64,000 nucleotides of DNA from an uncultured Chthonomonadaceae bacterium (GCA_963817895.1 CAWFQB010000001.1:288001-352000); one strand, 5' to 3'; shown: positions 31,151 through 37,966, counted from the first letter of the stretch. Program-made: numbers and translations. Notes: generated by a model not told the origin, from the sequence alone.

Positions 31151-32842
31151 CTAACGAACGAAAATGCCGGTCGGCCCGTTGAATTGTCCGTTGTTGCCAC
31201 TCCCCAGATTTCCATAGTTCGTGTTGTGGCCTCCCGTTATGCCATCTATGCGAACGATACGATTGTTGCCCGCATCGGCAATGAAGTAGCGGCCGCTTCC
31301 CGGTTCTACCCCGATGCCCTCCGGCGCGGTGAACTGGCCGTCGCCAAGTCCCAGCGCGCCATAGTCAACAGGGTTGGGAAGCGGAGAGGAGGTTGTATCC
31401 ACCGAGCGAATTCGCGCATTAGTTACGACCGGCGCGGGTGGCGGGATACTCAAGACTGTGTCGGCGATCAGCAGTTTCGCGCCGTCAAAGGTAAGATAAG
31501 TCGGCTCGCCAAAACTTCACATTGGGATCCATCGCGTTCATCGGGGCATAGATGTCTACATCGGCGGATTCATTGGATCATCGCTGAGTTTGTTGGTACG
31601 GATAATGCGATGATTTTTTGTATCGGAAATGTAGATAGACGTTCCGTTGATGGCGACACCCCAGGGCTGGTTCAGACCGCTACCCATCGCAGCATGCGTG
31701 GCATAGGAGAACGACTGGAAGCTCGCGCTATCCAAATTGGCGTTCAGGCTGCATACCCGGTTGTTGCCCGCATCGGCCACATAGACGGTATTGGAGCTGT
31801 CAACGGCGATTTGCCTCGGATTGCTCAGTTGATTCGTTCCCGTCAGCGCGTCCTGGACGGGATGCGTGTCTTGAAAATTGTTATAGCGAAGGATCCTGCC
31901 GGCAGCGCCCGCAACGACCGTGACATAGATGCGATTCAGGCTGTCCCTGGCGACGCCGTAGGGTATGCCATAGCCCACTGTGGACAGGGTCTGGAAGCCT
32001 GTTCCACCGATGTCTTGAATTTCAACGATGCGGCTGTTTTGGGTATCCGCAATCAGAATGGAGGCGTTGCACGTCAGCGTGAACACGGATTTGAGGGTAG
32101 ACTCGGTTTCCTGGATGGTGATATTCGTCGCGCCCAACGTGGTGTTCAAAGTAACGGTCGCCATGTTGCCTGCCTGCGCGATACTGGCAATGCCCTCCGG
32201 TCCACTGGTGACAGTGAATTGGCTGGTAATAATGTTGTTGTTATTTATATCCAGAGCCTGAATGTTCAGGTTGAATATGTCTTTGCGTAATCTGGTAAGC
32301 GATCCACGATCCGCAATCGCGCTGTCTCCTACCACCGTCACAATAAGCTTCGCGATTGTGGAATTCATCGTCAGGGGAATCTGCAAAGGCACATTGTCAA
32401 CAATCGTCAGTAACACGCTGTTGGTAGACTGTAGCGCGTTACCCTGCATCGGATCAGCCGGAAGCCGAGGGTCGGCATGATAAGCCTGAGCGGTTGCATA
32501 GAATTGACCGGTCGGCAGCTCTGTGAAAGTGGACGTCGTCACATAGGGCGCCATCGCCGGACGCTGCAAATACTGCGGCGCGCCGTACACTGTGCCGCCG
32601 CCATTGATGGTATCCGAAATGGTAATCACGACCCAGTTGGCGGCTTTCGGAACAAGGCGCGCGCTTTTCTGGCGATCCGGCCATTTGAGCGTGAAGACCG
32701 CCGCGCCTTTGCCGCGCTTTGCCGTCTGTTTTCCGGCCTGAGTGCCGCTGCCACAGCCGATAAACGACAGCAGCAGCGAGAAAATCAGGAATACGCAGGC
32801 GATTGCGCGCGCCCCTGAATTGGAGAGGAGGTTTCCTCGCAT
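31151..32842 (-). CDS. Lipoprotein with Ig-like domains and C-terminal NHL beta-propeller (frameshift near 31550)
   Basis: Lipobox FIGC. NHL repeats LSNPRQIAVD..VYVADAGNNRV, LNQPWGVAI, FTAPEGIGV..IADAGNNRI. Confidence 0.85.
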
Positions 32843-32851
32843 GTCTTTCTC

Positions 32852-33997
32852 CTAATTAACATTGACTTGGACAGACCCGGAGTAAATCGTTACGTTCGCG
32901 TTGGCGAACTGACTGGGATTGTCCTTGCTGGTGGCGCGCACCAAGTAGACGCCCAGCCCCCGGTTCACGGGCGCGGTGTAGAAGCCGGTAGCGGTAATCG
33001 AGCCACCCGAACCATCCGTTACAGGGGTGCCATCAGTTTTCGTAATGCTCCAGGTCACCTGGCCGGAGCCGTCGCCGGGTACGGTCCCGCCGGGTACGGT
33101 TGCCGTGAATTGCTGCGTGTTAAGCAACGCGCCGCCCGGCGCGGTTGCGGGACGTGGCTGCACGACCAGCGTCATAAGGGGCGGCGAAATACTTACCTGA
33201 ACGTCAACCGACACCGTAGCATTATATTTTGTACCCATTGCCGGATCCGAGTCGATCACGAGGTCTGTTGACGGACTATCCCGGTGCAGGGTCACGATGG
33301 CTTTAAGCGCGGCGGTTCCATACTGTTGCGCCGTTGCAACTCCGGTAATCGCATCCACGCGGACGACACTCGTAGACGCGGTAACAGCGTAGGTAATTGC
33401 GCCGACAGGAACCGGCACAACCGCCTCCTGCGCGTCGTATGCTGTCCCCACAACGGTAACGGTGTCGTTGGTAAGCAGTTTGGGTTTAGCGGCGTTGGGG
33501 CCGCTCAAAACCGCTTTGATATGGGTAATGGCGCTATCCGGCGAGATACTCAAACCGGCGGCATGGGCGGCGTCACTATTGCCGGCTGTGACCGTAATCA
33601 TTCCATTTGCTTCGGCCAAAACCACCGAGGCGGGAGTGACATTGGCAGCGACATCGGCATACTCTTTCACGTTCACCGGGAAACTGCCCAGCGGCAGGGT
33701 AAAGGCCGCCGTGCTGATAGAGCTGGGATTTGAGCGCGTAAGCGTGAAGGTCTGCGACGGCGAACCGTCCGTGACGGTAACGATTATGGTGTTCGTATTC
33801 GCCGGAATCAGACGTGTTACGCCCGCGCCGACATGTTTGCCCGTCCCCGTGTCAGCAGAGGGGATATAGGCCGGCCAGTTCACCGTGATGCGCGCAAACC
33901 CGGCTTTCCTGCCGTTCTGGACAGAGGCGCCGCCGCCACAGCCGGCCAGCAGCAGGACCAGCAGGGAAAGCGCGGCGAACGCATAGATTCAATTCAT
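32852..33997 (-). CDS. Ig-like lipoprotein (paralog 4); in-frame TGA at codon 3
   Basis: GGAGG RBS then ATG AAT TGA ATC.., LLLAGCGGG lipobox in frame with ORF 32852-33883. QQFTATV..VTWSI..GFYTAP..YLVRATS. Confidence 0.8.
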
Positions 33998-34130
33998 GGT
34001 ATCTTCACCTCCAAACGCGCAAACGCGCGTTTGCCTGTATATCTGAGCTCCGGAGTCTGCGCAGGAGAGGCTCCTGCGGTCAAGAATTCCGCCGCGCCTG
34101 AGAATGTGAACACATCGGCGCGGCGCGCCA

Positions 34131-35351: not shown

Positions 35352-35421
35352 GGTTATCTCCGTGAACGGGAATGGGGAACAGGCTCTGGTTCCCCATCCG
35401 CTCGATGGCAGGCGCATACGG

Positions 35422-36754
35422 TTACTGCACGGTGATGTCGGTGCTGCCGACCTGGACTTTGAACTTGGCGGTGGCCGCCTGATGCGGGTCCGCCACGCTT
35501 GTCGCGGTTATTTTGTACGGCTTAGACTGCCGGGGGTTGTTGGGGTCCGGGTTGGGTACGCGCTGATCCGGGGTAGGCGCAGGCGCGGTATAGAGTCCGC
35601 CCGCCGTGATGTTGCCTTCGAGTGGGCCAATCGCCGAGCCATCCTGGTTCGTCAGGCTCCACGTAATCAGGCCTGTATCCGCCGCGTCGCTTGAAATCGC
35701 CGTTGGCTGAAGCCCGGTGATGATCGCGACGAACGATCTTTTACTGCCCAGCGTAAACGCTCCGGAATAGGTACCCTCGTTTACGACTTTGTCGAGTGGC
35801 ACATCTTGAATGCCCACGTTGATGCGGGTATAAGCCGTAATGGAATTGGATATATTGAAGCCCAGTTCCGTAATGGTAATTGTCGCCGCCCCTACTTTGT
35901 CGCCTGTCTTCGGATGGAGTATCGGGGAAGCGCCAATGTAGCCTGGCGTAAGTTCGCCGGTAGCCGGGTTGACGTTCACAACTGTACTGTCTGAGGTTTT
36001 CCATTGCAGCTGGCTCGGGTCCACGAATACGTTGTTGCCTTTGGCGTCCACGGGATTGGCGGTGAGTTTGAGAGTCTTGCCGGATGTCAGTTCCGGCAGG
36101 CCATCCGTAGTCGGCTGAATGTTGAAATGGTCTATCGTGCTGTTGAGGCTGATGACAATGGTGGCTGTTTTGTTGCTGGTGGAAAGCGTGACCTGCTGCT
36201 CGAAAGCGGCGGTGGCAACATCTTTGTCGAACTGTGTGCCGTCGCCGCTGGTGAGCGGTTCAGCGTAGGTGCGTACCTGCACACGGAGTTTATCCAGAGG
36301 AATTTCGGGCAGGTTTACGTTGTACTGCCCGGTCGAATTGTAATTGCCGTTGGCGGTCGAACTGTTGACGAGGTTGTCAATTTTAACAGGCTGGAAAGGA
36401 TTGGTTTTATTGGTCTCATCGTAGGGGATGGCGACATCCCAGATAGGCAGGGGAAGCTCGTTCTGGCTCGCGTCCTGGGTCAACTGTGAAATAGTGATGC
36501 GAAAGGTATGTGTGCGGGTCGGCACGGCGCGGCGTCCGTCCGGCTTTTTTGCCCGCCTCGGCATCGTTCTTGAGAACAAAGATCAGTTTGCCGCTTTGTT
36601 GGATGGGAGCCGTGTTCTGGCTGCCGCCTGTGGCGGTTGTGGCGGCAGTGGAAGCCGTGCTTCGCGCCGTGCCGTTCCCGCCACACCCCGTGAGCAACAG
36701 GACGCCGACCGGCAGCAGAGCGGCTATCAACTTGCGTTGCGCATTATAAATCAT
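35422..36754 (-). CDS. Ig-like lipoprotein (paralog 2), frameshift near 36575
   Basis: LLLTGCGG lipobox in ORF 36416-36772. Body in ORF 35422-36579 with Big_2-like LQWKTSD and ITWSL..GLYTAP..ITATS..DP. Confidence 0.82.
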
Positions 36755-36768
36755 GGATAATCTCCCTG

Positions 36769-37966
36769 TCACGGTTGAAACGAAATGTCCAGGCTGCCCA
36801 GCGAAACTTTCACTGTCGCCACAGCGCTGATGCCCTTATCGAAAACAGAAGTGGCAATCAAATGATAAACGCCGGATTTAGCCGGGGGGATGTATTGCGC
36901 CACATTGGGATTGTTTGCATCTACGACGATCCTCCCCTGGTTGCTTTCGCGGATGCTCCAGGTGACATCGAGATTGGAGTTGTGCGCGATGGCATTCAGA
37001 GTAGTATTGAGTGGACTGGCATCCGTCGGTGGCGTCACGGTTGCGGTGAATTTGTACGCGATGTTGCTGGTCACGTCACCATTTTGCCCGAGTTGCTGTG
37101 GATCAATGACAACGTGCGTGGAAGAGTAGACTGTGATGGGCGCCGGATCGCTGGTGGTTGTTCCGACCTGTACCCGAACACTCGCCGTCCCGGATTGCAG
37201 CCCCTGTAGACTGTCCTGTGGGCTGTTGACCGTTTGATCCCTCGGCACGACCTTCAGGTAACTCGCGCCGTCGGGAATGGAGATGTTGACGCTCAGGGGG
37301 TTGACGGCCACAACAGACTGATTAGTGCCGGTTCCCAGATAGGCGACGAATTGCAAGTGGGTCGGCATGTGATCTTGCGCCTGCGCAGCGGAATCGCCGC
37401 TCTTCGGATACAGGTCTTGATCCAGCTTGACCGGCACAGACTGACCGGGCGTAACCACAATGAGGTCGGGCTGCTGCGATGTCGTCAGGTTCAAAACGCC
37501 GCCGGCCTCCGTGACGGTGACAGTGGTATCTATTTCGGCCAGCGCGTTATTGGATTTGCCAAGAAAAACGGCTTTTACGTCGCGCTTGCCAACCTTGACG
37601 AAGGTGGGAGGATAGTAGGTCTGAGGTTCGGGCGCGTTCATTGAAGTGTCGCGGGTGGCGATAAGTATGATGTCGTTGCCGTTCTGGTCCGCTTTGGACA
37701 GAGTGATTTTCGCGGATTGCGCGTCCACAGCGGCAATAACCGGGGCGGTATCCCGGTTCAGACGGAGACCAGACAGCGTGGGGGACACGCTCGCCTTTCC
37801 CTGTGACGCGTTTTGGGCCGGGGCATTGTCCGCCCACTGAATTCTGAACGCCACGGCGCGGCGTCAGTTCGCCGCTGGGAGTTCCCAGGTTGCCGGTACA
37901 GGCAGTCAACAGGCTTCCCGGCAGGGCAAGCGCTATGGCGTAAAGCCATCGAAACGGTTTGCGCAT
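36769..37966 (-). CDS. Ig-like lipoprotein (paralog 1), frameshift near 37858
   Basis: LLTAC lipobox in ORF 37547-37966. Body with FTATV..VTWSI..YIPP..YHLIATS..D. Confidence 0.8.

Follow-up and report, generated by a model that had tools for sequence, protein, structure and literature searches.

The gene array

The stretch of DNA analysed here (the window; 64,000 nucleotides) is from an uncultured Chthonomonadaceae bacterium (GCA_963817895.1, CAWFQB010000001.1:288001-352000), a soil organism of the phylum Armatimonadota. Five head-to-tail lipoprotein genes, designated g1 to g5, lie on its minus strand at 31151-37966. A first-pass annotation, made from the sequence alone, had described them as five paralogues carrying a donor-strand signature and had proposed that their products form an anchor/shaft/tip polymer resembling the type V pili of Bacteroidia. 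The array, its relatives and its neighbours were re-examined computationally, and coordinates below refer to the minus strand unless stated otherwise.

As translated from the assembly, g1 (36769..37966) and g2 (35422..36772) each lie in two frames, and g4 (32852..33997) carries a stop at codon 3. The sole uninterrupted frame of the five is that of g3 (34131..35417), which encodes 406 residues counted from MKSVF. The last gene, g5 (31151..32842), encodes an N-terminal domain characteristic of the family (the N-domain), a Big_2-like domain and an NHL propeller (Pfam NHL, E = 2.5e-15); the absence of a C-terminal strand that had been reported for this gene was confirmed in its translation.

A lipobox was located in each gene, as claimed: LTAC at 37898-37909 in g1 (the body of which starts at 37863), LTGC at 36683-36694 in g2, LAGC at 35214-35225 in g3, LAGC at 33938-33949 in g4 and FIGC at 32753-32764 in g5. 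It lies in a different frame from the body in g1 and g2 and behind the in-frame stop in g4. The quoted first strands, Arg loops and C-terminal ends were likewise all recovered from the minus-strand translations. The first strand and the Arg loop together occupy ~37741-37857 in g1 (AVAFRIQW to LNRDTAP), 35070-35144 in g3 (GGVTVKIVW to SRYIP), 33803-33901 in g4 (GFARITVNW to TRLIP) and 32648-32707 in g5 (GAAVFTLKW to ARLVP); in g2 the strand GKLIFVLKN is at 36566-36592 and the loop reads GRRAVP. The C-terminal strands, here termed tails, are GSLDISFQP in g1 (36772-36798), GSTDITVQ in g2 (35425-35448), GYGQITVTNN in g3 (34134-34163) and GSVQVNVN in g4 (32855-32878).

The description of the genes as paralogues holds for four of them; the likeness of g1 is confined to its C-terminal part, where the immunoglobulin-like (Ig) domain and tail resemble those of g2 (E = 1.7e-4). 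Full-length alignment was obtained for g3 and g4 (27% identity, E = 2e-15), and the remaining pairs share single domains only: the N-terminal part is common to g3, g4 and g5 and the last domain to g1, g2, g3 and g4. A profile built for the N-domain matched g3, g4 and g5 strongly (g4 at E = 8e-20) and g2 weakly (18.4 bits), the g2 match being colinear and including the ...LNSTIDH end.

Distribution and plan of the family

By sequence comparison, g1-g5 belong to a real, unnamed family that extends throughout the Armatimonadota and is usually encoded in tandem arrays. The N-domain profile found matches in 79 of the 201 Armatimonadota genomes sampled (~40%), representing 54 of 117 genera. By our own tally of the profile matches listed, 23 tandem sets (members within 2.5 kb) are present in 14 genomes; one of these sets is a run of five genes in genome G106. 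The genome studied here has 13 open reading frames (ORFs) with the N-domain, grouped in five or six clusters. The annotation of the six family members that were looked up never went beyond 'hypothetical protein'.

Pfam has no family for the N-domain. No Pfam family of any kind was detected in g1-g3, and no Big_2 row in g1-g5, at E 0.1; at E values up to 10 the N-domains gave merely scattered single-member rows. Comparison of the N-domain profile with PDB sequences returned nothing meaningful, the best match being a ribosomal protein at E 0.094. A word-based homology search with g3 recovered four proteins only, and a scan of a genome collection with a narrower alignment recovered two loci. An exhaustive profile search gave 36,324 hits, nearly all of them to the last Ig domain, which is a very common repeat.

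The members follow one plan. A lipobox (G-C-G-G-G) is followed by a linker, the first strand (G-x-A-x-h-T-h-x-W) and the Arg loop, of ~11-20 residues with R-[LVYF]-[IV]-P; the rest of the N-domain extends to ...L-x-S-T-I and is followed by a Big_2-like domain (Pfam Big_2 was detected in relatives). The lipobox, the first strand, the R-x-[IV]-P loop and the N-domain are conserved in alignments of 12 and 21 relatives. Two types of ending were observed. In the first, one or more Ig domains are followed at the extreme C-terminus by Q-x-G-x-x-x-h-x-h-[QNHK]; in the second, a binding-type domain is present and the C-terminal strand is absent. The binding-type (cargo) domains assigned with Pfam are an NHL propeller (g5 and locus L012), a PQQ propeller (locus L019 and contig C6 of this genome), CBM6 with or without F5/8 type C (L018) and a Dioxygenase_C-like domain (L020). 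The combination of N-terminal module and C-terminal tail, put forward earlier for the first four genes, is conserved over a large Armatimonadota family.

The C-terminal tail

The tail is 8-10 residues long. It was defined by its conservation within the family, because a loose tail pattern proved no commoner at C-termini than internally: tried as a marker over the ORFs of the genome, this pattern was found at 19 C-termini and at 16 random internal cuts of 30,031, and it was abandoned. Among the 13 columns that are invariant in the 12-sequence alignment is the Gly with which the tail opens (G397 of g3). Reading by eye of 152 proteins from the exhaustive search identified a tail in 18; in 13 of these 18 the best profile match begins at position 52 or earlier and thus spans the N-domain. 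Generic Ig-repeat proteins are numerous in the same list and have no tail. In members with several repeats the tail is found on the last Ig copy only.

The tail had been said to mimic the first strand, and in register a likeness is real. The mean BLOSUM62 score of first strand against tail was 10.5 for pairs from the same protein and 8.9 for pairs from different proteins, whereas random peptides with the composition of the tails scored -5.0, tails shifted by one residue -8.5 and reversed tails -10.9. The generic character of this likeness is considered below, where the proposed assembly is weighed.

Tail-bearing and cargo-bearing members

Eleven arrays were compared, namely the five of this genome together with loci L012 and L017-L021. 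In ten of them the tail gene or genes come first and the tail-less cargo gene or genes (NHL, PQQ, CBM6/F5-8C, FGE or other) come last; the exception is a pair on contig C2, which has neither feature. In agreement with the earlier suggestion of a tip-type member without a donor strand, the tail is missing from members that have a binding domain. The array of genome G106 (L017, G106:C5:16000-35000, positions 5706-13223) departs from this split: its first gene combines an FGE-sulfatase domain (Pfam) with a tail, genes 2-4 end in a common GFRC motif followed by the tail, and gene 5 has an FGE-sulfatase domain and no tail.

The loop Arg is kept in all 15 distinct tail-less members for which the loop is complete, and it is missing in four of ~29 tail-bearing members, including the first gene of the array on contig C4. 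By analogy, the distribution of tails and cargo domains fits the anchor, stalk and tip scheme of type V pili.

Predicted structure

An AlphaFold model of g3, calculated with 21 aligned sequences, has three beta domains, with a mean predicted local distance difference test (pLDDT) value of 80 and a predicted template-modelling score (pTM) of 0.59. The first strand (69-77) is modelled confidently and the Arg loop (86-91) has pLDDT below 50. The earlier proposal was to be given up if the C-terminal strand proved integral to its own Ig domain. In the g3 model the strand lies outside that domain, because the last Ig domain is complete, with eight strands, and ends at 394, before the tail; the tail itself (395-406, pLDDT 71-84) belongs to no sheet. 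Structural matches that cover whole Ig domains of g3 mostly end at 395-398. Domain 2 matches SbsC, Big_2-CBM56, GH2 Ig domains and invasin at Z 9-10.8.

Neither FimA nor Mfa proteins were among the best 50 Foldseek matches or the best 50 VIA matches of the whole g3 model. Since these lists were filled by Ig domains, the N-domain of g3 (150 residues) was folded alone, which gave a model of seven strands with pLDDT 85 and pTM 0.77. Type V pilins and related Bacteroides proteins matched this model through their N-terminal domains at Z 6.4-7.7, in the range below 8 that the tool assigns to a common arrangement. The matches include Mfa3 (Z 7.7), BACOVA_04078 (3up6; 7.3), the FimA1 prepilin (6.8) and FimA2 (6.7), followed by 4qdg, 3liu, 5cag, 3r4r and 3gf8. 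Their aligned stretches are the longest (up to 126 of the 150 residues) and begin at residues 30-35 of the pilins, before the known sites of cleavage. On the basis of the model, the pilin likeness of the N-domain is compatible with the proposal and mildly suggestive, and it does not amount to homology.

Neighbouring genes

Three further genes lie downstream of g5 on the same strand. The first (30146..30920), split by a frame break, encodes a small protein with a signal peptide, which has ~225 residues in intact paralogues. These paralogues end in ...GLGYNF or ...GLGFSF, and the copy in the window is 31% identical to that on contig C4 and 38% to that on contig C14. Pfam has no family for the small protein. 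Its Atlas neighbours are small outer-membrane barrels of the OMP_b-brl/PagL kind, which is a lead only; the protein is probably a small outer-membrane beta-barrel.

The second gene (27022..30108) encodes a protein of 1028 residues with WD40 repeats and a Peptidase_C14 (orthocaspase) domain, and the third (25445..26947) a second Peptidase_C14 protein of 500 residues. Both have signal-peptide-like N-termini. The two proteins match Pfam Peptidase_C14 at E 2.8e-11 and 1.2e-21, and the motifs of a His-Cys dyad were recognized by eye in both translations (SSHG ... DTCYA in the first, AGHG ... DACFS in the second); both are predicted proteases. Exported bacterial orthocaspases have so far been discussed mostly in the context of cell death. 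In the available part of one account (PMC6426788), orthocaspases are described as cleaving after positively charged residues.

The pair formed by the small protein and the WD40-caspase (~1000 residues) is present in three diverged copies in the genome (C4:494665-498512, C14:417806-422034 and window positions 27022-30920), which are 30-43% identical and each adjoin tail-bearing ORFs. A sister species (G002) has two orthologous loci in which the order is tail genes, small protein, WD40-caspase, and at one of them a gap of three bases separates the frame of the last tail gene from that of the small protein. In the stretches fetched for loci L012 and L017-L021, neither the small protein nor the WD40-caspase was found as a neighbour. 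Apart from its association with the array, the pairing of an exported orthocaspase with a small gene resembling those for outer-membrane proteins (OMPs) is an unexplained module in its own right.

Comparison with known systems

To our knowledge, type V pili are the sole pili built from lipoproteins by protease-triggered strand exchange. As set out in the available portion of one account (PMC13655056), type V pilins are lipoproteins of two transthyretin-like domains in which an N-terminal anchor strand is followed by a beta1-beta2 loop that is cut by Arg-gingipain (at Arg46 in FimA and Arg49 in Mfa1). The same portion states that C-terminal donor strands occur on stalk and anchor pilins and are absent from the tip and adaptor types, that the anchor pilin has no cleavage site, that in the monomeric pilins the donor strand belongs to the sheet of the C-terminal domain, and that these pili are confined to the class Bacteroidia (PMC13655056).

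The Armatimonadota family resembles this system in its lipoprotein precursors, its operon-like arrays and the succession of lipidated Cys, anchor strand and loop with a conserved Arg; the distance from Cys to Arg is 23-45 residues, compared with the 27-29 given for FimA and Mfa1 in that portion of the account (PMC13655056). It also shares a seven-strand transthyretin-like N-domain (in the family, as seen in the AlphaFold model), a C-terminal strand on the presumed base and stalk members that is absent from members with a binding head, and a secreted cysteine protease of the Arg/Lys type as a candidate trigger. It differs in having as its candidate protease a WD40-repeat C14 orthocaspase in place of a gingipain, and in being spread through Armatimonadota and not Bacteroidia.

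Other systems share single elements with the family. Chaperone-usher pili, like the assembly proposed below, use a short terminal strand to complete the Ig-like sandwich of the next subunit and have a tip adhesin with a separate binding domain; their donor strand, however, is N-terminal and a periplasmic chaperone and an usher are required, according to the text available on them, whereas the strand of the present family is C-terminal and the subunits are lipoproteins. Archaeal cannulae and Tat-fimbriae are polymers formed by donor-strand complementation without a chaperone; going by their abstracts they are not lipoproteins, and no protease trigger is mentioned there. Big_2 surface proteins (invasin/intimin, LigA and SbsC/Sap) have the fold of domains 2 and 3 (Z 9-10.8), and surface lipoproteins with an Ig stalk, including those of the Bacteroides SGBP type, similarly combine a lipid anchor, an Ig spacer and a binding domain. 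Such Ig-stalk proteins are single chains, and are not known to have a conserved free C-terminal strand or a split into tail-bearing and cargo-bearing paralogues.

Proposed assembly and alternatives

By analogy with type V pili, we tentatively favour the view, to which we give a little less than an even chance, that g1-g5 are subunits of a protease-triggered strand-exchange assembly at the cell surface, drawn from a distinct family specific to Armatimonadota. Each subunit would be exported as a lipoprotein, and its first strand, the 'anchor' strand behind the lipid-bearing Cys, would keep the seven-strand N-domain closed. A protease would cut after the conserved Arg of the loop, the neighbouring exported WD40-orthocaspase being the candidate, and the released strand would be replaced by the C-terminal strand of 8-10 residues of another subunit. 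The tail-bearing g1-g4 would then supply the base and the stalk, and g5, with its NHL propeller, would be placed at the tip because without a tail it could only accept a strand. The product is more likely an ordered stalk, short and made of a few different subunits with a binding head, than a long homopolymer. The analysis itself establishes the gene family, the order of its domains, the occurrence of tails and of the Arg, the predicted folds and the neighbouring genes. The anchor/shaft/tip reading of the first-pass annotation is partly supported: the layout of lipobox, strand and Arg loop, the split between tail and cargo and the adjoining C14 proteases speak for it, whereas there is no FimA/Mfa membership by sequence and no second transthyretin-like domain.

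A number of observations weigh against this assembly. By sequence, g1-g5 are not members of the FimA/Mfa family: the family has no sequence similarity to FimA or Mfa, PF06321 (P_gingi_FimA) and PF13149 (Mfa_like_1) had no match in the whole genome in a search whose Bacteroides control was positive, and Mfa_like_2 matched one of nine N-domains at E 0.05, below any cut-off. In place of two transthyretin-like domains there is one, followed by Big_2 and Ig domains, and the short tail is free in the model and is not a two-strand element tucked into the C-terminal domain. The N-domain profile does not match g1 (score -0.5).

The structural comparisons are similarly ambiguous. The whole g3 model matches NUP210, SbsC/SbsB/Sap, LigA, invasin/intimin and ICAM-1 D1, all of them generic Ig chains. 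The N-domain is matched best by the pilotin lipoprotein ExsB (Z 8.6-8.8) and by a lyase domain (Z 8.5), and FN3 and transthyretin-like domains score much as the pilins do, at values that indicate a common arrangement. The Foldseek comparison with FimA/Mfa1 suggested earlier, when made with the N-domain, gave a FimA-like protein (3up6, E 2.5e-3) as its best row and nothing at or below 0.001.

Strand mimicry carries little weight as well. Among the 8-mers of each protein that resemble the first strand, the tail ranked first in one of 26 proteins and among the top three in 13 of 26, the closest usually being an internal Big_2 strand (G-T-A-T-I-T-V-T); as this internal strand usually outranks it, the tail is best described as an ordinary amphipathic beta strand, and little is gained from its mimicry. 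The loop presents a comparable difficulty: many relatives have a short Arg loop, the conserved [LVY]-[IV]-P that follows the Arg could mark a structural motif and not a cleavage site, and tail-bearing and tail-less members do not differ significantly in Arg retention (4/30 and 0/16 missing; Fisher p 0.28). Linkage to the caspase was observed in this genus alone; the best caspase match in G023, G020 and G017 lies on a different contig or at a distance of 150 kb.

Two other explanations are each considered unlikely, and to the same degree. In one, the proteins are separate lipoproteins that do not polymerise, the tail is a docking or sorting signal and the Arg motif has a structural role or simply marks a site of release. 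For export or anchoring, the tail could then be read by the small outer-membrane barrel; alternatively, it could serve as a substrate tag for the WD40 propeller of the orthocaspase. The estimate covers both variants. Some surface lipoprotein systems use C-terminal strands as export signals, the cargo domains are of the kinds typical of binding modules in surface lipoproteins, and the g3 model shows a short, free tail. Tail genes also directly precede the small OMP-like gene and the WD40-orthocaspase gene at three loci here and two in G002, yet most arrays of other families in the phylum (L012, L017-L021) have no such neighbours. A signal of this kind would moreover be expected on the cargo members, which have no tail, and the fold of the small protein that would read it is merely a lead.

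In the other, g1-g5 are ordinary monomeric Ig lipoproteins composed of a spacer and a binding domain, the tail is how the last Ig domain ends in this particular family, and the arrays result from expansion of paralogues. This would account for the generic tandem-Ig matches of the whole protein (SbsC/Sap, LigA, invasin/intimin and NUP210), for a last Ig domain that is a very common repeat (the 36,324 profile hits), for the generic strand likeness and for Atlas neighbours that are Big_2 lipoproteins. It agrees less well with a tail that follows a complete eight-strand Ig domain and enters no sheet, that opens with an invariant Gly in the 12-sequence alignment and that is absent from internal Ig copies, being confined to the last copy and to proteins with the N-domain. 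The split between tail-bearing and cargo-bearing members is also hard to derive from plain expansion.

If the strand-exchange assembly is real, it would be the first of type V kind outside Bacteroidia and would provide the first extracellular role for a bacterial orthocaspase; its occurrence in a distant and little-studied diderm phylum would mean that the principle of assembly is older and wider than thought, or that it has arisen twice. It would also give a function to an unnamed family found in ~40% of the Armatimonadota genomes sampled and to exported bacterial orthocaspases. The wider claim, that Armatimonadota own a donor-strand-exchange lipoprotein pilus in which orthocaspases open the subunits and ordered stalks bear exchangeable NHL, PQQ, CBM6 or FGE-like heads, is rather doubtful. 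A literature search found no report of such a system and none joining Armatimonadota with type V pili. Even without a polymer, the split between tail-bearing and cargo-bearing paralogues would define a new modular family of surface proteins with a C-terminal signal.

Frame breaks in the array

The five genes had been read as continuous, which does not stand: five breaks that went unmentioned cross the array (a frameshift in g1, a frameshift in g2, the codon-3 stop in g4 and two frameshifts in g5), leaving g3 as one open frame. In g1 the frame of 37547-37966 contains the lipobox and that of 36769-37863 the body, with a TGA immediately before the body. In g2 the frame of 36416-36772 contains the lipobox and first strand and that of 35422-36582 the Arg loop and body, with the break at or near 36531. 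The start of g4 consists of ATG (33995-33997, preceded by a good GGAGGTG site), AAT and the in-frame TGA (33989-33991), after which the signal peptide follows. In g5, changes of frame near 31560 and near 31510 are needed to reach the last NHL blades (31151-31516).

Parts of the array are covered by two public runs (X1 and X2), with the break sites of g1, g4 and g5 outside the coverage. A contig from X2, an independent metagenome, is identical to the window over 36486-36667 except for one base absent at 36531, and because of this omission the two frames of g2 join. A contig from X1 (a related strain, 95-99% alike) is one base short at 33037 within the body of g4, where the frame in the window is open; as its depth is ~3, the missing base may be an error of that contig. 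The breaks in g1 and g2 both fall inside one GC-rich 14-mer (36523-36536 and 37851-37864), which has five copies in the genome. This 14-mer was considered as a site of systematic error or programmed frameshifting and was dropped, the other three copies giving no sign of a frame break.

Similar breaks affect unrelated genes in the window: DprA (42117-43245) is in two pieces, a PQQ-propeller gene (40232-41617) in three and a Pvc16-like gene (38261-39749) in two, and the small OMP-like gene (30146-30920) is split too. The assembly has 14 contigs (7.48 Mb) and a completeness of only 81%, and breaks of this type are common throughout it, as if indel errors were frequent. On account of these breaks in unrelated genes, of the low completeness in so few contigs and of the X2 contig, the breaks look like assembly errors for the most part. 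That the array consists instead of decaying pseudogenes, with the frameshifts and the stop real and four of the five genes dead in this strain (which would be compatible with any of the other readings), is very unlikely: five disruptions within 6.8 kb, a g4 stop that is a substitution-type change and not a homopolymer indel, and the lack of coverage at the g1, g4 and g5 sites speak for it, yet housekeeping and unrelated genes throughout the window have like breaks, completeness is 81% despite the 14-contig assembly, the g2 break is missing from the otherwise identical X2 contig, and the open frames past the breaks remain long and conserved.

Other features of the window

A scan of 24000-40000 for promoters and terminators gave counts no different from those of shuffled sequences. 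The upstream neighbour of g1 (38261-39749, minus strand) encodes a Pvc16 N-terminal domain, of a contractile injection system family, followed by two CarboxypepD_reg-like domains and a charged tail. Several overlapping ORFs at the start of the window (1-1875) likewise look like genes split over different frames. The G+C content reaches 69.5% at 8001-10000, inside an ORF of 1226 residues on the plus strand (7044-10724), compared with 54-63% in the rest of the window.

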